Source: Moniliella sp. 'wahieum' | Taxonomy: Eukaryota | Direction: 5' to 3' | Length of the DNA: 64,000 bases | NCBI GenBank assembly: GCA_003971905.1 | Contig: RSEE01000022.1 | Span: 1-64,000, forward strand | Shown here: one piece after another, positions 1,275 through 58,106 of the stretch | Position numbering within the stretch: the stretch's first letter is position 1 | Layout: each line of letters opens with the position of its first letter | Notes under the pieces: generated by a model | Seen by the model: the letters and a program-made list of their open reading frames with translations, nothing else | Databases searched by the model: none | Told to the model about the DNA's origin: nothing | Position numbers and translations under genes: made by a program

Positions 1275-1524
1275 GGCAGCACGTGGAAAGCAATTAGCCC
1301 CGCAGTCACGTGCCAACCATGCAGTTAAATGAGAACGACGGCAAGAATAGCCAGAAGGAAAGGAGGGCAACAAAACCCGGCGACGAGCGAACAGAGGCAG
1401 AGTTACAAGCGAGGCGGGGGACGGGCAGCGGCCACACCATCTCCCAACCAAGTCCTCTCGCAGCCGAGAGGCGTTGCAGGAGGGAGTGTTTAAGTTAGGC
1501 CGGTTTGGCTGAGCAGACACCCAA

Positions 1525-1928
1525 ACCGCGGTGGTCTAACGGCGATGATGCATCTCTTCTACGTTCTCCATCCGCATGATGGCCCAAGCGAGGAACGCAA
1601 GCAGTGGTGACCTGTTAAGCCGCCCAAACACACCCACCTGGTCACAGGTTCGTTCCCCCACGAGCGCAAGCTTCATTTGCAAGCTGCTTAGGGGAGGGTG
1701 GAGTATAAGGGGGGTGCACACAGAAAAAGTATCACAAAACACAGGCCGCAAAGGGGGGGGCACTCCGTCCGATATCGATTGATATATGCCGAGATGCTTG
1801 AGTCCTGCCACAGGCTATGAGGCAAGCAGGTCTGGCGGCCTCCTTGACTCTGCTTTGTGCTGGCTTGCGTCCATCTCCGGAGAGAAACAGACAAGATTGA
1901 GATCCGGGTTCGACTCCCGGCCGCGGTA
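1525..1928 (+). tRNA. tRNA with anticodon TCT (nominally Arg) interrupted by a 331-nt intron (1562-1892)
   Basis: 5' exon 1525-1561: ACCGCGG TG GTCT AACGGCGA TGAT G CATCT CT TCT A. 3' exon 1893-1928: A AGATT GAGAT CCGGG TTCGACT CCCGG CCGCGGT A. Acceptor stem 7/7, T stem 5/5, anticodon stem 4/5, joined loop CTTCTAA. C32 (1556) can pair with the antepenultimate intron base G1890. T6 follows at 1932-1937. Confidence 0.8.
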
Positions 1929-1931
1929 GAC

Positions 1932-1937
1932 TTTTTT
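1932..1937 (+). terminator. Pol III oligo-T terminator
   Basis: TTTTTT 3 nt after the tRNA discriminator base. Confidence 0.75.
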
Positions 1938-13345: not shown

Positions 13346-15083
13346 ATGACTGTTGACACGACCGGAATCGATTCGCCCGCCCCGCTTCGCCGGGAGCGGT
13401 TGAGCGTGGCCACACTCCAGGTGACGCCCGTAGACGAGGCGTTTGCGTCCAAGCAAAACACGTTGGAGGGCGAAAAGCCTGAGCGGCAAGCAGCGCAGGA
13501 CGACACCGACGCCGACGTCGAACAGCAGCAGGCCTCTAGCGCGCCCGCCTCCGCCTCGGAACTGCAGTTTCGCGCTCATGCGCTGTTTGACCCGCGTCTG
13601 CGGCCCATGATCAAGATGGTCATCAAGGGTCTAGTACCCATGGTTGCCATTCTGTGTGTGGTAGTCATTTGGGGTCTCTTGCCCGTTTACGTACGTCTGC
13701 CATGCTTCTTCTTGACCGTCGTGCCGAGTCTGGCGGTTTGTTCTGAGATGATCTTCGGTGATGTGCTAACTATTGGGGGTGGGAACTGCAGTGGGGCTCG
13801 TTGTACAAGCTCACGCCGCGTCGATTGCCAGCGTGGGTTGTGAATGGGGATGTGGGGGGTGCGATTGGGGAGGCGGTGGAGCAAGGGATCCTGACGCAGC
13901 CAGGGAATGCGATGCGGATGAAGTGGTCCAGTCGGTCGGCAGTGCAGTACCCGACAGCCGGGATTGAGCATGCGGTGGTGCGGGAACAAGAGGCGTGGAT
14001 GGTGGTGCAAGTGGCAACGAATGCGACACAGCGCCTGATCACTGCCCAGACCACGGGCGACACGAGCTTTGATCCAACGAGCCTCATCACGCTGTACTAC
14101 ACCTCGGCACGCAACTTTAATGCAGCGGCGACGTACATCAAGGATCCGACGGTTGACATGTTGGAGGGCATTCTGGCCACGCTTACCGAAGACCTAACCG
14201 CCTCCTGGTTTGCCCGTCTTCAAGGCGCCTCGAATGCTACTGCCATCCTGGAGGCCGCCGGGCGGGCACCGCGAACGATTGGCCAACCGGTTCGATACAC
14301 CGTACGGGATCTGCGACCGTTTGACCAAAGTGTAACGGTGGCCACCACGTTTGTCGGGCTGATCTACACGGCATCTTGACGTTCAACGTGGCCATGGCGC
14401 TGTATGGACTGCGACAAGGCTTGCAAGTGTATCTCACCCCGCGTGCGCTGTTGCTGATGCGGTTGGGTGGGCCGGTCGTGGTCTATGTACCGATCGCGCT
14501 GTTGTTCTCCATGATCAACTTGCCGTTTCAAGTCAACTTTGCCGCCATGGGCCCAACGAATGCGGCGGGGTTTTTTGCGTTTTTTGCCGCGACCTATACG
14601 GGCTTTTTGGTCACCGGCTTTTGGATCGAAAGTCTTCTCTCAGTGCTCACCATCCGCCTCGCGGTGATTGGACTGGTCATGGTCATTTGTACGGGGGTGG
14701 CTGGGGCCAACTACCCGATTGAGATGTTGAATTCGTTCTGTACGTTAACGCTATCCCTTGCCTCTTCTGATCATTGTCGACTGGCTATTACTTGGCCCTC
14801 CGCCTCTCTGGTGTGCGTTTGCTAACAATCGGTACGCTTTTGTATGTCGTTTCTGGTCATTACAGACAAGTGGGAGTACGCCATGCCGTTCTACAATCTC
14901 AAGCAGATCTATACGACGATCATCTTCGATGTGGGAGTGCCCGTCAAGGTGATTATGAAGTCGATGGGCATTCTGTGGGCTTGGCTGTTGCTCCTCGCGC
15001 TCACCTTCCCCGTTTGGGCGCTGCACGAGCAACGCGTGGCGATCAAGGCGCGCGGTGGGCCGGTTCGACGTTGGCCCCTGTAA
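13346..15083 (+). CDS. SNG1-like / DUF3533 multipass membrane protein
   Basis: N-terminal TM (VAILCVVVIWGLLPVY|WGSLYK), luminal WMVVQV and LYYTSARN, DLRPFD...ATTFVGLIY, then several TMs and YAMPFYN. Introns at ~13691-13789 and ~14740-14865. Confidence 0.8.
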
Positions 15084-20961: not shown

Positions 20962-21061
20962 TGATCGAACCCGGGATCGAACCGGGGACCTTACGCGTCT
21001 CAACGAGACCTGCTGCTCCAGGATGTGAAGCGTACGTCATGACCAGCTAGACCATCCGACC
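20962..21061 (-). tRNA. tRNA-Val(CAC) with 26-nt intron
   Basis: Reverse complement: GGTCGGA TG GTCT AGCTGGTCA TGAC G TACGC TT CAC A [26 nt] C GCGTA AGGTC CCCGG TTCGATC CCGGG TTCGATC A, then TTTTT. Confidence 0.95.
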
Positions 21062-21790
21062 GTGATGCTCAGCCTGTTTCCTCTTCCGTCGTCTGTTCCC
21101 CCGGGGCATGATCATATTAGCCCAACAACATCGATTCCAAACCCATGAACGCATCCGCATCCGCCTCCGCCTTACCCAGGCCCGAGCGCGTCAATTCCTT
21201 GTAACGCACTCCGGATTCGATGGGAAAGAGCCTGGTAGGGCAGTGTTAGGCACCACTTTCCCTGTCCCACACTTGCGTTTTGCAAATGATATCAAGCTTC
21301 AAGCCAATAACAGGAAGAGTAAGCTACCAACCCACACAATAGTAAGCGCCGTTAGCGAACGCTGCTGGAGTGGCGCACTGAAAATGCTGAACTAGACCAC
21401 GTTGAATCTTAAAGTGAACTACCAGAACAGCCGGGAACCTTATCGCATGGGAACCCCATCAACGTCAACGTCGTCGCTGATTCCTAAAACAGAGGGTCAA
21501 AACGCATCCGCCATCCTGCCCGTGCCAGTCCCCCGCCCCTTGTCCCCCAGCAACCACCTGATCAACAATTCGAATTACATTAGTTCCGTCCCATGTCCCC
21601 CACCCTCCCCCACGCCTCCCATCGACCTACGAGCCCAAGGCAGAGAGGAATCGGCGAGAGAGAACCCGGCCCCAAATGAAATACCTCGCCTAGCCTGGTC
21701 TGGTCTAGCCTGGTCTGGTTTCGCCTCGCCTGGCCCCAGGGTGCAACAAGTCGGGTGACCAGCGGGTCGTTCAACGTTCATCGATCACGC

Positions 21791-27384: not shown

Positions 27385-30300
27385 TCACGCATGCGGCGGC
27401 GCAAAGGGAGCACGGGCAGGCACCTTACGCCCGCGGTGCTCATTCCAGTCGGCTGGCGCACAGAAGTTGCAGTACCACGGATCCACGTCCTGGGCGTTGC
27501 GCAGCCCACACACCGCATGTGGAACCACTCGCGCGGACACGGCCCGTTGTCGCACCGCACCATCTGCCATCTCATGGTCAGTACCATACCATACCATCCA
27601 TACCCATCCCACGCCCAGTCGTCCCACACGCAGGGGGGAGACGCCACGTACCGTGCCGTAACTTGAACGCCCGCATAGCAGTACGACTGCTTCTCTTCGC
27701 TTCCTTCTCTGTCAGCAACGCGATCACCATCACCATCACCATCCCCATCATTATCACCATCACCATCGTGCGCTTGATCTTGCTCCGCCTCTTGCCCTCC
27801 GTGCTGTTTCGTCTCATTCTCAGCCGCTCCTTCTTCACGTCCTGCACCTGTCCCTCACCCGCCACGGCAGAGGACGGTTGGCTCTTGGCGGCGCGATGAC
27901 GGTAATCCGTCGTTTCTTACTGGGAGGTGCTGGTGCGGGGGCATCGGTGGCACGGAGCGAGCGCGCTCGCTTCGTCCGTCCCCGAATAGGTTTTGCTTGG
28001 AACCGAAGGCTTGGGCCCGGTGGATCCTTCGCGTGAGTGCGCGTGCCAACCGTACGCGCCGGTGGATTCGGGGTGAGTGCGCGTGCCAACCGTACGCGCC
28101 GGCAGATCTTCGGGGGCACTCGTAGCAGCCGCAGGCGCTGGGGCGCTTGAGGCACTGGGACTCAGGGGTGCTGGCTCCAGGTCAGGAGCAGTGCGAGAGC
28201 GGCGAGTAGAGCGGCGGGGCGGTGCCTCGGTTGTCGTGGGCGAGGGCAGAGAAGCAGTCGCCTGAGGCTTAGGCGCGAGGCACGACGAGACCGTGTCTTG
28301 GGCCGTGACTCGGTCGAAGGCGCAGGTTCGGCGGCGGGAGCAGGAGCCATATCGGACTCGGAAGTAGGAGCTGGAGCGCGTTCCAGTTCTACAGCGGGGT
28401 AGGCGCAGGAACCGGCACGGGGTCAGACTCTGCTCAGGATGAGGATCCAACTCCTGCAGAGACAAGAAGGACGGTGCGGCAACGAGCTAGCTGTGGATCA
28501 GAACCAGGATCAGAACGGGGGAAGGAAGGCAGAACGGCTGATCATCCGTGGCAGGGACAGGGCCCTGAGGACCTGGTAAGAGGGCGAATTGTCCAGGGAA
28601 AATGGTGCCAGGGTGGAGCAGCGGGAGAGAAACAGAGGACGCCAAAGAGGTCGCAGGAGGTGGTACGTGGGCACCCACCCCATCGTTGCTCTGGTTGTTG
28701 AGCATCACACCAGGCGCTGAGGCCGGGGCAGTGCTAACTCCTCAACCAGTGGCAGCGGGAAGTCTAGCCTAGGGCGGCGAGGTACCCTCTGAGAGGCGGT
28801 TGGCGGCAGCCTTCTTGGGTGGGCTCGGGGTAGGGGTTGCGTTGCCGGCGGAGAGGTCTCCAGAGGCAGAGGAGGTTTCGAGCCCACGGTTGAGGCAGCG
28901 GAGGGAGCCGCAATTTCGTCCTCTGCTGATGGCTGGGTCGACGGATTGCCCGAGATGGGCTCCGTCGTGGACCCCGTCGTGACCTCGGGCGTGGGCTCCA
29001 CGGTGGACACACCATCGTGGTAGATCCGGGCGCGCTTGCGGGAGTGGCTGGAGGAATAGCCTGCTCATCGGGGATGGAGACTTCGGCCGGCAGCGGTTGT
29101 GGATCGACGGCAGTGGGGAGAGGGATCCGTGAGCGGTGTCGGGTGTCTGGGTGGGAAGATCAGGTAAAGGTGGACGCTCCTTCTCAGGTTCGTCAGGAGG
29201 TCCCTTGGGCTCCATCACAGGCTCGTCAGGATACGTGTCCGGCTCCACCTCCATCTCTTCCGGCTGAACCGCCTCGTTAGCTTCTGCGCGAGGCACGTCT
29301 GGTTCCCCTCCCACCTCCGTGGGGTGTATGCTCTCGTCGACAACCGCACTTTCCCCCGGGGCAGGGCCGCCTCTCCTGCAGCCTCAGCCGAATGAATAGG
29401 GAGCATGCCCTCCACCTCGGCCAGCTCGGCTCCTTCCCCATCCGGTTCGTGAAGTACGGTTCTCTCCTTCAGCGTCATCGCCCCAGGCGCTGGCGCTGGC
29501 CCAGATGCGTCGCCTGGTACCACGTGTGGCTCGACACTCGTTCCCTGCGCCATCTCCCCAGTCTGGCTGTTGCGAGGAGCCTTGTCGTTCTCGACAGGCT
29601 CGTCAGTCTCTGCAGTCTCGACGTAAACGTGCTCCCCACCCTCGATGTGTTCCCCGCCCTCAACGTGCTCCGCACCCTCGACGTGCTCCGCACCCTTACC
29701 GTGCTCCGCATCCTCACCGTTCTCTCCGCCTTGGCCATGCGCACCACTATGCTCCCCCTCATTTTCAGCGGGCGGCATGGCGGGCGGGTGCGGGTCGAGC
29801 TGTGGGCCAAGAGGCGCAGGGAGGGTGGGGACGCCAGCGGCACGTTCGCACGCAGAGACCATTGCGCGGTTCTCCGCACCCAGAATCTGGTGGGCTCGAC
29901 GAAGGTGGCAAGCGAGGCCGTTGTGAGTACGGCCGCGGTAGGTGCACTGCGGACACGCCCAGACGCCCTCCTCGACGATACGACGTTTCTTTCTGGGTTG
30001 CTTGGCTTGCCTCGGTTCGACGTCGGGGTCGGCGTCGGGGTCGTAGTCGGCGTCGGCGTCGGGAGCGGCGGTGGGCCGAGACGAGGTGGTAGGTGCCAAT
30101 CGAGGCGTGGTGGCTGCGTGAGAAGGCGAGGGGAGAGTGGGAGAGGGAACGGGGACGGGAACGGGGAGGGGGACGGGGACGGGGACGAGAGCAGGCAAGC
30201 GGTGGATCTGGTCCATAGGCAAGGGTCCTTCATGGTCCGGCTTGGCCCTCCAATGGCCCGAGAGCTGCTTGAGATGGCGACAGGTGTAGACGCATCGAGG

Positions 30301-33050
30301 GCACTGGAACCGTTCGGTTTGGAGTGTAGGAGACGGGTCGGGAACCAGCACCGCCTCGGGCTCGCCGCGTCCGCGACTTCGTCCCACCCTTGCTGGCGAT
30401 CGGGCCGGCGTGGCCTGATGGTCGTACCGACTCATATGCCGCTTCCAATTCGACGTGGAAACGACCAGGGAGCAGATGGGGCACGTGCGCTCAGCCCCCG
30501 ACCGCGCTGGCTCCTTACTGGGAGAGGGAGCGGTGGGAGCCAGAGCCTGGCCCTCGGCCAGAGCATGGTAGTACGCCTCGGTCCCGTCCACGAGCGGATG
30601 GGCCGCCAGGGGCACCTCGGCGGCAGGAGAGGGAGGATGGAGCAATAGATAGATCTCCCTCGCGCGGGATGCTCCAATCTGAGTGGGAGCGTGGACGTCA
30701 GGATGAGAGAGCTGTGAGATGAGAGCAAGAATGTCGAGCACGAGCAACTCTGTCCTCTTTCTCTGAGGGGAAGGCAGGACCGACTTGAGGTCAACATGAA
30801 ACGCGTGCCCCATCGCAGCGAGATAGGCTTCCACGCTCTCTGTCAGCTCATCGCAGTCACCCTGTTCAAGCGGGGCGTCAAACACGGATGTGTCCCAGTT
30901 TCGCTCCTCAAAGGCCTGGGAAGCGACCAAGAGCTGGCAAGTGATCGCTTCACCAAACACATCAATCTCATAGTAGAGCTGCTGCGCGCGCTCCACCCTC
31001 TCGCGAGCAAGAATGGAGAGTGCCTGCGCACCACGCTCAAGCGGCTCGAGCGTGTCTCCCCGTTCGATCCAAGCTAGAAGAGCTGCGCGTTCATGTGCAA
31101 AGGCAGAGCGGAGCGTGGCGAGCACTTGGGCCTGCTCCAAGACCGACTGTGGGAGCGTATGTAGAACTGGTATGAGGGAGGGAGGGGATGTCAGTATTTT
31201 TTTGTTTTTTCCTCAGAGAGACAGGAACGTACAAGGTTGATATTCCTTTTGCCAGGGATAACTCTCGGTTAAGACAGGGGAAACGGATTCCACGGTCATG
31301 GGAAAGTCAGGAGGCACGATGCTAGACAATCGGGGAGGTGCAATGGGCACAATCTGTGCTTCTTCAGGGGGGCTCCACCCCAACTGAGGAAGATCAACTT
31401 TCACGCGAGCGACGAGTGACAGATCCGAAGGATGCGACTGGCGAACCGAATCAAGCACGGCGTCCAGCCGTTTGCGGGTCGAAGAGGCGAGAGAACGGGC
31501 ACGTTGGGCATCTTGCTTCTTTTGAATTTCGAGGGGAGGGCAAATGGTCTCAGCCTCCAACATCTCCTCCTGGGTAGGAGGAACAGCGAGTGGTGCCACA
31601 GTCTCCAACACCATTCGCAACACCGCTTGCACCGCCCGTGCGGCCATGACGTGGCGAGCAATATATCCAGGGGGGACGGGAAGATGTGGAATGGGGGAGC
31701 AGACATCCTCAACGGTCGGGGGGTCTCCTCAACGGCGGAGGGGGCACCCTCCTCATCAAAGGCCGGGACATCATCAACAGGGGAAGAGAAATGCGCCGCA
31801 GTGGGGGCTGCGTCCTCAACGAGGGGAGGGGACGCGTCCTCAACGGGGCGGGCAGGGGAGGCACCGCCAATAAGGCCTGGCAGATCATCAGCGGAGGCAT
31901 AGGCCTCTTTACCTGGGCTGCGGGTCCCCTCGCCAGCGGTAGGCGCATCCTCAGCAGCAAGGACAGCAGAGGGGTCTTCCACCGCGTCGGGGTCGTCGTC
32001 AGGGGACCGGAGTATCTGCAGCGGGGCCTGATGCATCCTCACCGGCGACCGTACGATCCTTGACTAGGCGTGAGGCATCATCCGTGGGTCCAGGAGCGGA
32101 TTGATCAGCAGCGGTAACCGGGGCCTCATGAAGATTATCATCCCCAGGGACCGGACACCCTGATGGGAGGCAAAGCTTTGCTGCTCAGGGGTGGAGATGT
32201 CCTCTGCCACGCGGTCCGAGACGTGCTGCATCGGAGCAAGAAGGACCTCGTCAGCGGGGCCGGGGGAGCACTGGACGGAGGCCGGGCCACCTTCCAATGG
32301 GGCATGGGAATGAGCATGGGCATGGACGTGGACATGTACATGAACATGGTCATGAGCATGAGCATGAGCATCGGCATCGGCGTCGGCATCGGCATCCTGG
32401 ATGGCCGGGGAAAAGTGCTCGGCGAATGCCAAGGGGGAGGGGCGATCGTCCATAGAGAGAGAAGACGAGCCTAGGTCGGACGACGAAGAGCCCGGGTCGG
32501 AAGGAGTAGGCGAGCGGAGGAGGGGCACAAGGGTGCGTCGGGTGCTCCTGGCTGCCTTGAACGGCGAGGGGGGGTCGGCCTCGGGTTCGGTCAGGTCCAG
32601 GTCCAGGTCCGGGTCCAGATCGAGGTCCAAGTCCAGGTCCAGGTCCAAGTCAGAATCCAGGTCCAGGTCGGCGTCACCATCAGCGTCAGCGTCAGCGTCA
32701 GCATCAGCGTCGGCTTCTTCGTCCAGGGCGTGGCGGCGGCGGCGGGCGGCGGGGGTAGGGGAGGAGGGGAGGTGTCCGGCGTGCCTGCGCTGCAACGCCT
32801 CGCGCCGGAGCTGCTCGTGGCCTTCTGGGAGGCGAGCAGCGCGGCTGCGCGCGGGGCGCGTGCGGACGGGAAGGGGGCGGGCGAGGGCCCAGGGGACGAG
32901 AGCGGCGACGCCGACGCACGCACCCACGCGCCCGCCGCCGCGCCCGCCGCCGCGCCGCCGCGCCCAGCGGCGACGACACACGCGACGATGCACGCGACGA
33001 TACACGCGACGACGCATGCGACGACGCCGGGGCAGAGGCGCGCACACGCG
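27385..33050 (-). CDS. Large low-complexity nuclear protein with three C2H2 zinc fingers and a C-terminal ING-type PHD finger (start uncertain)
   Basis: C2H2 motifs CPIC...HMSRYDH, CPRC...HWRAKPDH and CPQC...HLRRAH in ORF 29215-31140. PHD: YC.CGRSSYG|MVRCDNGPCPREWFHMRCVGL...WYCNFC at ~27450-27690. Colinear minus-strand ORFs fill the gaps. Confidence 0.65.
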
Positions 33051-34338: not shown

Positions 34339-35103
34339 TTATACGAGCAAGGCGCTCAGTTGGGGTAGCTTGTTCTGTAGTGGGGTTAGAGAGGACATCA
34401 AGCTGGCGGGGGACCAACAACGTACGCCAGGAATAAAGTGCCGTTCCACCCCCGTTTCCGAGATGTCGGTCATGCGGATCGTGCCGCCCGATGAGCCATC
34501 GCGGGACATGGCGAGGGCAAGCGCTTCCGAGCAGTGTTAGCTGGAGTCCAATGCAGAAAAACGAAATACACATACCATTCTTGACAAACTCGAGCGTCTG
34601 CTCCTTGTTCATCCCCGGCTTCCAATTGGCATCGCAGTAACCGTAAATGTAGGACGAACCGGAGCCGCAATGGCCAATGGCCCAGGGCTGTTGGAACAGG
34701 CCCCCTCCGAGCGGAACATTGAACACAGACCCACCAAACTTGGGGTCCCAGCCAGCCACAATGATGCCAGCTGACAGCGCGTCCTTGTTCTGGTACACCA
34801 CTTCCTGGAACAGCGACGCGGCCGTCTTGACAGGCGGCTGGCCATGCTCGACCGAGTAAACGCTGAGATAATAGGTGATCATGTCCGCCACGGCCTGGTG
34901 TCGGCAGCCGAGCCACTGCGGCAACAGTAGATGCGGTCGGAGATGTGGGTGAGCTTGTCGGTCACGCGGTTGGCAATGTAAGAGCCCATGGTGGTACGAC
35001 TATCAGCACCAAGGACGACGCCTCCGTCGTAGGCGACAGCCATGATGGACGTGCCGAGATTGACCTCGCCCTCCTTGAGATGCTGGACGTCAATGTCGTT
35101 CAT
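34339..35103 (-). CDS. PRE3: 20S proteasome subunit beta1
   Basis: Propeptide ending EVNLG, then catalytic [33 protein letters not shown]. Two 3' introns. Confidence 0.95.
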
Positions 35104-55759: not shown

Positions 55760-57389
55760 TAGGACTCTAATAACGCCATGTTTTGAGCAATTCCAATTGC
55801 GTGGCTGTAGGCGACATTTCCCCTGCTTCGAGAATCCATGAAGGGGTGCATAGTCTGCGTAGGAGCAACCGAACTACGCGCACAGCACGAAACGGAGCTG
55901 ACGAGAAGGGACTTGTAGAAGGGGGTGCTAGAGTGAGGAGCCCACAGGATCGGGTGCAGTTTAGCGTTCAGCTAAGGCGAAAAGATTAAAAGCAGCGAGC
56001 CCAAAAGCCTTTAAGCACGTTTGAAGAGAAGAAGATGATAAGGGAGATGGAGATGGGGTGATGCAAACAGGGGCTAGACCTCCTGCGACTAGAGCGGAAC
56101 CCTTCTCCCTAGTAAGCAAGCGCGTTAACCGATCAATTTGAGGTCCGTGTGCAAGGAAACCCCAGGGCCACCCTCATTGTGCACAGTACGTGATGAGACC
56201 TGGAGTCCTGATGGCCCTCAAGGGTGGTGCAATCGCACTAGTGGTGGCGGCGGTCGTGGCGGTCGTGGCGGTGGCGGTCGAAGCCAAGCCGCAATACCTA
56301 CAGAGGGACATCACGCAGCCAGTCGTCACCAAGGGGTAGGCTGCGGAACAAGGAAAACAGAAGCGAGAAAACAACGGAACTCCTAGGCCTCAGGAGGGTC
56401 GTTGGCCAAAACGCACCACCTACCCGGCGACTCAACACAGCGGACACAGGTGGCACCAGCAGGCTCCTCACCAACCAGCTGGTCACTCAGTCCACCCGCC
56501 CATGCAGCTCATGTCGGCGATGGCTGAAATCAGGACTTCTTATTGCCAGTCTTTCACCCATCGCACAAACACGCCCAAGCTTTCCTGTGCTATGTGTGAG
56601 CAGGCGGGACAGCTCATCTGGTCTGGTGTATGTAGCTGGCCGGAGGCATCTCGATGGTCACATTCGATTACCCTCTCCTGATCGAGTCATCGGCCATGAT
56701 GCTCATCATGGGCTGTAGACGTGCAGCTTGAACGCAAGCTCAGGGGTACCACTGGGGTACCCGCCGTGCCGGCCCCGTAGCGGCCGGGAATAGCCGAAGC
56801 GGCCGATCGTCGCGGGCAGGGGCTATGCGATGGCAGAACGAGGGAGAAGGAGAGGAGGAGGGCAAGCGTGTGGAGGCACCTCGATTGGGGCGAGGCGGGC
56901 GAGGCGGTGGCGGTGGAGGCGGCGGAGGCGGTGGAGGCGCGGCGCGGCGCCGTGTGGGCGCTGGCGCTGAGGATCGAGCAGGCCCGGCCAAGCCAGGCCC
57001 AGACGGCACGGGTTCCGGGGATGGCACATGTCAGCCAGAATATCCTAATCTCGTCCCGCACCTCCTCCTGCCGGACACGGACACAGGCGCCGTGCTGGGC
57101 AGGTCGTCGACGAACATGTGGCGCTTAATCCGATCTTTTTTTTCCGCATCGGCACGCATCGGCTCGGCGGGTGATTAATGCCTCGATTAATTTAGCGGCA
57201 GTGGCCAGGGAGGCGCATCTAAGCCCAAGCCATGGAAGGCAGCCTGCGCTGCGCCGCCGCCCCAACCACCTCCACCTCCACCTCCACCTCGCCTCTTCCA
57301 CGCCTCTTCCACCTCCTCTGCCCCCCCTCCCCGGCCGCGCCCCGCTCGCCTCTCCCCCCCCCCCCCCTCACGCCCACCCCCAGCGTAAC

Positions 57390-58106
57390 ATGCCTTCTCC
57401 CCCCCCGGCCGCAGCAGCCCGCATGCGGCCTACAACGCGGGATCGCAAGCTGGCTGTGCTGGGCAGCCGAAACGTCGGCAAATCCTCCCTCGTGGTGCGG
57501 TATGTGGAGGGGGTGTTTGTCGACAGCTACTACCCCACCGTCGAGGGTACCTTCACCAAGGACATCCGCTTCCATCAGCAAGTGTACCCGTGCCACATTA
57601 TCGACACGGCAGGCCAAGACGAATTTTCGTTGCTGTATTCGCACCATGCCGAGGGCATTCAAGGCTTTTTGATTGTCTTTGCCCTCAACAGCCGCGCCTC
57701 CTTTGACATTGCCCCCGCCATCTGCGCAAAATCTCCGAACGTACCGGTCTGGAGTCCCTCCCCGCCGTGCTGGTTGGACAAAAATCCGACCTGCACCAGC
57801 AGCGCAAGGTATCGCGGGAAGAAGGGAAGAAAATGGCCCGAGAACTGGGCCTGCCGTACATTGAAACGTCCGCACGACACGGAACGAATGTTGGTACGTC
57901 TGTCCGCCTTCCCCTTTGGGCCTCGGTGCAGCGCGCTGCCTCCGAGCGCAGAACCTCGAGATGCGGGACAGGCAGAACTGACCTTATCTCAACCCGCAGA
58001 CCAAGTGTTCCAACTACTGCTTGAGCAAACAGAGAAGCATCTTCAGCCCCAGCCAACACTGCCGGCACCAAGCACGAAGGAAGAGAGCGCATGCAACGTG
58101 ATGTGA
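57390..58106 (+). CDS. RHB1: Rheb small GTPase
   Basis: G1 LGSRNVGKSS (Rheb-type Arg), effector DSYYPTVE, DTAGQDEFS, ETSA, CaaX CNVM. Intron ~57894-57999. Confidence 0.93.
   Translation: MPSPPPAAAARMRPTTRDRKLAVLGSRNVGKSSLVVRYVEGVFVDSYYPTVEGTFTKDIRFHQQVYPCHIIDTAGQDEFSLLYSHHAEGIQGFLIVFALNSRASFDIAPAICAKSPNVPVWSPSPPCWLDKNPTCTSSARYRGKKGRKWPENWACRTLKRPHDTERMLVRLSAFPFGPRCSALPPSAEPRDAGQAELTLSQPADQVFQLLLEQTEKHLQPQPTLPAPSTKEESACNVM

Follow-up and report, generated by a model that had tools for sequence, protein, structure and literature searches.

We describe a split tRNA-Arg(TCT) gene at positions 1525-1928 of the window, by which we mean the whole 64-kb stretch of DNA that was analysed. Its two halves are separated by an insert of 331 nt at the canonical site of tRNA introns, and this arrangement is confirmed. 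Judging from the sequence, the locus is probably a live nuclear gene for tRNA-Arg(UCU) in a GC-rich basidiomycete, whose canonical 37/38 intron has grown to 331 nt. Tentatively we go further: this may be a working gene that is possibly the only AGA decoder of its genome, with the longest canonical tRNA intron recorded in a eukaryote and the first such intron outside the budding yeasts. The mechanism is not a new one.

If the gene is live, it would raise the upper limit for both Pol III/TFIIIC (boxes 363 bp apart) and Sen/TSEN (a 331-nt intron), move the phenomenon from one yeast clade into the basidiomycetes and again tie intron expansion to rare codons. Fungi would then have expanded the introns of rare-codon tRNA genes repeatedly and convergently, and standard tRNA annotation would silently lose essential isoacceptors; a genome could falsely seem to have no AGA decoder, leading to wrong inferences of codon loss or reassignment. 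The long intron might throttle maturation of a low-demand tRNA or keep anticodon nucleases away from the precursor's anticodon loop, and once excised it might persist as a stable 331-nt RNA that has its own function. A dead gene would be an ordinary pseudogene.

Anatomy of the split gene

Exon 1 (1525..1561, forward strand) supplies tRNA positions 1-37, comprising the 5′ strand of the acceptor stem, the D arm, the 5′ strand of the anticodon stem and the bases CTTCTA, which contain the anticodon TCT. Exon 2 (1893..1928, forward strand) supplies positions 38-73, comprising the 3′ strand of the anticodon stem, a 5-nt variable loop, the T arm, the 3′ strand of the acceptor stem and a discriminator A. 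The 331-nt intervening sequence (1562..1892, forward strand) separates positions 37 and 38, ending in ...ACAGAC.

Read from the sequence, all seven acceptor pairs form between 1525-1531 and 1921-1927, and the T arm has a complete 5-bp stem with the loop TTCGACT. The D stem consists of three pairs and a U13/U22 mismatch, with GG in its loop, and the anticodon stem has four of five pairs, C27/U43 being mismatched. Joining the exons gives the anticodon loop CTTCTAA with anticodon TCT, and the resulting cloverleaf is a complete class I tRNA with a 7-nt anticodon loop and a 5-nt variable loop. The conserved tRNA positions are intact (T8, A14, the D-loop GG, A21, T33, A37, G53, TTC, A58 and C61). 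The first-pass annotation of this DNA had proposed a cloverleaf built from two halves, with a 7/7 acceptor stem, a 5/5 T stem and the loop CTTCTAA, and every one of these elements is present. It had also placed the insert exactly at 37/38, and here the junction bases fix both boundaries: exon 1 ends in A where the intron ends in C, and the intron starts with C where exon 2 starts with A, so that neither boundary can be slid.

Run by default, with introns off, ARAGORN finds no tRNA gene in the intact 64-kb window, which bears out the earlier suspicion that default scanners could miss the gene. With introns allowed it reports a tRNA at exactly 1525-1928, so that the proposed check in intron mode recovers the gene, though with a poorer intron model. 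Deletion of 1562-1892 in silico, the other check that had been proposed, leads default ARAGORN to call a 73-nt tRNA-Arg(tct): the joined exons pass and are not rejected.

The model that ARAGORN -i prints for 1525-1928 is an 86-nt tRNA-Arg(CCG) whose variable arm is long and whose intron, of 318 nt, lies at 32/33. We consider it extremely improbable as a description of the gene, its printed output notwithstanding. Arginine tRNAs belong to class I and have a short variable loop, which counts against the long arm. Placing the intron at 37/38 yields a clean 73-nt tRNA with a 7-nt anticodon loop and a 5-nt variable loop, and the program misplaces the intron of a neighbouring gene too, giving Leu(cag) with an intron at 35/36 for Val(CAC) with an intron at 37/38. 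Eukaryotes with the four-subunit TSEN are moreover described as excising introns at 37/38 alone (PMC10485636).

That neighbour, the second tRNA gene of the window, is a tRNA-Val(CAC) gene on the reverse strand (20962-21061); its intron, at 37/38, measures 26 nt, its variable loop is short, and the gene is directly followed by a T5 tract. ARAGORN -i applies its Leu(cag) label despite the short variable loop. The gene had been cited earlier as a comparison with a 26-nt intron, and it holds up as such when the intron is set at 37/38. The two genes are alike in the canonical position of the intron, in having A and B boxes and an oligo-T terminator, and in the upstream motif GGCTGAGCA; they differ in the length of the intron (331 against 26 nt) and in the spacing between the A and B boxes (363 bp against a few tens).

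Judged from its matches in shuffled copies of the window, ARAGORN -i has limited specificity. It gave 18 spurious matches over 150 block-shuffled copies, and in a smaller run one match in 10 shuffles and none in the reversed window. None of the 18 spurious matches carries the B-box consensus, whereas it is present in both real genes, whose acceptor stems are also fully paired (7/7); the consensus matches just twice in 64 kb, once at each tRNA gene. The absence of a B box from the spurious matches excludes chance as the origin of the tRNA call. By our own estimate, a random insertion would hit the 37/38 position of a 73-nt gene about 1 time in 72.

The two stem mismatches (U13/U22 and C27/U43) would also suit a dead or dying copy of the gene, in which a short intron has swollen by about 300 nt through insertion, filler DNA or slippage while AGA is read by another copy. 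Such a copy would be supposed to be poorly transcribed, with its boxes 363 bp apart, or poorly spliced. This is the main rival explanation, and we rate it as unlikely. DNA inserted inside an older intron would preserve the 37/38 boundaries, and intact exons and flanks are expected in a recently inactivated gene as well as in a live one; against decay, the conserved tRNA positions, the B box, the terminator and the upstream 9-mer shared with the Val gene are all intact.

Promoter, terminator and upstream element

The preferred reading of a live gene implies a Pol III transcription unit, and the sequence contains an A box, a B box, no oligo-T within the gene and an oligo-T tract after it, with the boxes 363 bp apart. 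The A-box-like internal promoter element (1532..1543, forward strand) covers tRNA positions 8-19 and starts with TGGTCTA, as does that of the Val gene. The B box, GGTTCGACTCC (1907..1917, forward strand), is perfect and is one of the two consensus matches of the window. From the end of the A box at 1543 to the start of the B box at 1907 the distance is 363 bp. A T6 tract resembling a Pol III terminator (1932..1937, forward strand) begins 3 nt past the discriminator.

The insert contains no run of four or more Ts. The earlier account had taken this, together with the T6 tract, as a sign of a live Pol III gene; both observations are true, while the first is weak evidence of life because 52-57% of 331-nt windows are likewise free of such runs (3305 of 6367 on the forward strand and 3599 of 6367 on the reverse strand).

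The 9-mer GGCTGAGCA (1507..1515, forward strand) ends 9 nt before position +1 and is a candidate upstream or start-site element. When both strands of the 64 kb were searched it was found twice, at 1507-1515 (forward) and at 21066-21074 (reverse). Each copy closely precedes a tRNA gene in the sense orientation, that of the Val gene ending 4 nt before it. We estimate roughly that two 30-nt upstream regions would share a 9-mer by chance in a few cases per thousand. Possibly the motif is an upstream or start-site element specific to the Pol III genes of this lineage; we know of no such upstream 9-mer in the literature.

Transcription would begin with TFIIIC binding the B box (1907-1917) and reaching the A box (1532-1543) over 363 bp. 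In yeast, TFIIIC reportedly coped with about 365 bp between the boxes, a result attributed to Baker et al. in 1987. Pol III would then initiate a few bases upstream of 1525, traverse the intron, in which it would meet no run of four or more Ts, and terminate at the T6 tract (1932-1937), producing a precursor of about 410 nt. We infer this route, and the splicing described in the next section, from the elements named.

The spacing of the boxes is the main worry for a live gene. Human tRNA genes are given a natural A-B range of 30-67 bp (PMC11811891), which the 363 bp found here far exceed, and a distance so far over the usual range is a point in favour of a dying copy.

The insert and its removal

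In composition the insert resembles its surroundings, with a G+C content of 56% against 58%. It has no second copy in the 64-kb window, where BLASTN gives no off-target match longer than 13 nt. On the forward strand it has stops in all three frames. Frame 1 of the reverse strand is open apart from one stop, and a 172-aa ORF on that strand over 1688-2206 has no Pfam match. A search of the whole window against Rfam at gathering thresholds gave no match; at E <= 10, the region 1400-2100 gave four weak matches at the level of chance, with no group I intron among them. One of the four is mascRNA, which reflects the tRNA-like 3′ half.

An intron or element of another type, whether a group I intron, a spliceosomal-type intron, an archaeal-type bulge-helix-bulge intron or a transposon, is very improbable. 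Small group I introns do occur in the anticodon loops of bacterial and plastid tRNA genes, and their size range includes 331 nt. Here, however, exon 1 ends in A1561 and the intron in C1892, not in the U and G of a group I intron, and Rfam yields no group I match at E <= 10. For a spliceosomal intron, a GT...AG sub-interval is available at 1563-1890; excision from GT1563 to AG1890 would enlarge the anticodon loop by three bases, and GTTCTC makes a poor 5′ site. In the canonical register of a bulge-helix-bulge, C32 pairs with G-3 and U33 with A-4, whereas U34/C-5 and C35/A-6 stay unpaired, giving two pairs where four are needed. As for a transposon, the insert shows no target-site duplication, no terminal inverted repeat and no LTR-like end, and no other copy is found in the 64-kb window. 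Taken jointly, these other elements, the tRNA-Arg(CCG) model and chance are very improbable.

The lack of transposon hallmarks and of a second copy in the window bears on the dying copy too. The insertion does not look recent, yet the exons are undecayed, a combination that argues against a dead gene.

We also considered a snoRNA embedded in the intron. An ACA at 1887-1889 lies 3 nt before the intron end, and ATGATGG at 1576-1582 lies 15 nt from the 5′ end. The candidate was dropped: inspection by eye showed no D box (CTGA) close to the 3′ end, no hinge was seen, the folds have no local hairpin before the ACA, and Rfam gives no match. The H/ACA-like and C-box-like motifs are probably chance occurrences.

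The predicted folding is no more stable than that of shuffled sequences, with a z-score of -1.2 for the intron and -0.7 for the whole precursor. A fold compatible with the cloverleaf lies 2.5 kcal/mol above the minimum free energy; in it the intron closes on itself adjoining both splice sites, and the two intron ends can pair together.

The A-I pair was among the claims of the first-pass annotation, which paired C32 with the G at intron position -3. C1556 (C32) and G1890 (-3) are indeed complementary, and their pairing leaves A1891, C1892 and A1893 as a 3-nt bulge at the 3′ splice site. The Val gene offers a possible T32:A(-3) pair in a matching layout. So far the claim stands; folding does not favour the pair, and complementary bases at position 32 and intron position -3 are expected by chance in 6 of 16 cases. 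When folding is constrained to the cloverleaf, the anticodon pairs instead with the AGA at intron positions -4 to -2, and the C32:G-3 pair has a computed probability of 0.00016. Protein-bound geometry may differ from the constrained fold at this pair.

Statistically, then, the absence of T4 runs, the stability of the fold and the A-I pair are each uncompelling as signs of a live gene, a point in favour of a dying copy. More informative are the exact 37/38 placement, the full set of conserved tRNA nucleotides, the perfect B box, the T6 tract, the cloverleaf-compatible fold with its closed intron and the upstream 9-mer GGCTGAGCA.

A live gene would be processed by known means. Four-subunit TSEN is described as excising introns solely at 37/38, using the mature body of the tRNA as a ruler together with the A-I pair (PMC10485636, PMC10539383), and as coping with varied intron lengths through a flexible intron loop (PMC10539383). 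In the ~410-nt precursor, the mature domain would form the cloverleaf while the intron folds on itself, and the paired intron ends would bring the two splice sites together. A heterotetrameric Sen/TSEN endonuclease would measure from the mature body and cut at 1561|1562 and 1892|1893. A fungal Trl1-type ligase would then seal the halves into a 73-nt tRNA for AGA.

Codon demand and comparison with known long introns

Under standard wobble rules AGA is read only by a UCU anticodon. Among 1,359 Pfam-backed codons of the window, AGA is 1 and AGG is 4 of the 81 arginine codons, and GC3 is 0.71, a strong bias; the Pfam-backed stretches include 13762-14376, 34550-34912 and 57129-58103. Demand on an AGA decoder is very low, not zero. 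By the same codon usage of the window, little demand falls on either AGR decoder.

An inefficient gene layout is likely tolerated because AGA is rare and demand for the tRNA low, and on this ground we infer a link between rare-codon demand and expansion of the intron. The same low demand implies weak selection to retain every copy of the gene, which a dying copy would also reflect.

The genes around the tRNA are ordinary eukaryotic nuclear genes, with histone, Ras, proteasome, RNB, HLH, fungal OrsD and DUF3533 domains by Pfam. For the proteasome beta-1 exon the best named matches are in Ustilaginomycotina, with Tilletiaria anomala at 73%, followed by Parajaminaea, Sporisorium, Violaceomyces, Ustilago and Malassezia; further assemblies match the exon at 83-90%. 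On the strength of this one conserved protein the host is taken to be a basidiomycete. Elsewhere in the window, a single-exon ORF of 641 aa (29215-31140, reverse strand) gives weak matches to OrsD and to a SUZ12-like zinc finger, and a word-based homologue search with it found no relatives. It may encode a fast-evolving or lineage-specific zinc-finger protein.

Patterns taken from the tRNA exons were searched in other DNA. A 21-nt stretch of exon 1 matched nothing in metagenome contigs or in genome contigs. The T-arm/acceptor stretch, written with two N, matched three places in genome contigs, all inside GC-rich bacterial coding DNA, and four metagenome loci, none of them a relative. One of the four lies in an array of 11 tRNA genes within about 1.5 kb (contig L001, 99-1608, reverse strand), of the type found in phages and some bacteria, where one T arm and acceptor resemble the query. 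At another, ARAGORN makes a poor call whose intron is 1,283 nt long, and two of the four have no tRNA call. Metagenome contig L002 (1420-1530, forward strand) has a T arm and acceptor 3′ strand like those of a tRNA, with TTTT after them; ARAGORN finds no tRNA there even when introns as long as 3 kb are permitted, and the site could be another tRNA gene, split or degenerate, from an unrelated organism.

The length of the insert can be set against published values. tRNA introns are said to be 'generally 15-30 nucleotides' (PMC10485636), and in a set of 3,723 yeast tRNA introns the lengths have an interquartile range of 15-31 nt (PMC5951914). Krassowski et al. 2018 report tRNA-Leu(CAG) introns of 134-318 nt in Kluyveromyces, Eremothecium and Lachancea kluyveri (PMC5951914). 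The intron had been called exceptionally long at first, and at about ten times the norm of 15-31 nt it is so, while the yeast tL(CAG) introns provide a precedent of the same order (PMC5951914). In the literature searched, subscription journals being outside its scope, we found no other eukaryotic cases of long tRNA introns.

Two further kinds of tRNA intron invite comparison. Group I introns of bacterial and plastid tRNA genes also measure a few hundred nucleotides and also lie within the anticodon loop; the insert differs from them in its boundaries (A|C...C|A), in having no group I core by Rfam and in its nuclear fungal context. In prasinophyte algae (Ostreococcus), introns at the canonical position exceed the eukaryotic norm, and at about 64 nt they are far shorter than the one described here (PMC13578239); the algae are also of a different kingdom. 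Their length is a genome-wide habit (PMC13578239), whereas the only other tRNA gene seen in the window has an intron of 26 nt.

The yeast tL(CAG)-Z genes, as described in PMC5951914, share with the Arg gene the 37/38 position, an intron longer than the norm by an order of magnitude, an intron predicted to fold extensively on itself and a rare or dispensable codon. Both were also missed by default scanners, tRNAscan-SE having overlooked tRNA-Leu(CAG) in some Kluyveromyces species (PMC5951914). Although their introns reach 318 nt, the yeast genes are regarded as the functional tL(CAG) genes of their species (PMC5951914), which counts against the Arg gene being a dying copy. Their authors speculate that expansion slows maturation or guards against anticodon nucleases (PMC5951914).

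The differences from tL(CAG)-Z begin with identity and host: the present gene is Arg(UCU) and not Leu(CAG), and it comes from a basidiomycete resembling Ustilaginomycotina and not from a budding yeast. Its fold is no stabler than shuffles, and its 331 nt exceed the published maximum of 318 nt by 13 nt (PMC5951914). The long intron of tL(CAG)-Z is conserved across genera (PMC5951914). Since the two genes are not orthologous, we class the Arg gene, which by its sequence combines a canonical intron of more than 130 nt with a rare codon, as an analogue of tL(CAG)-Z and not as a member of that group by descent.
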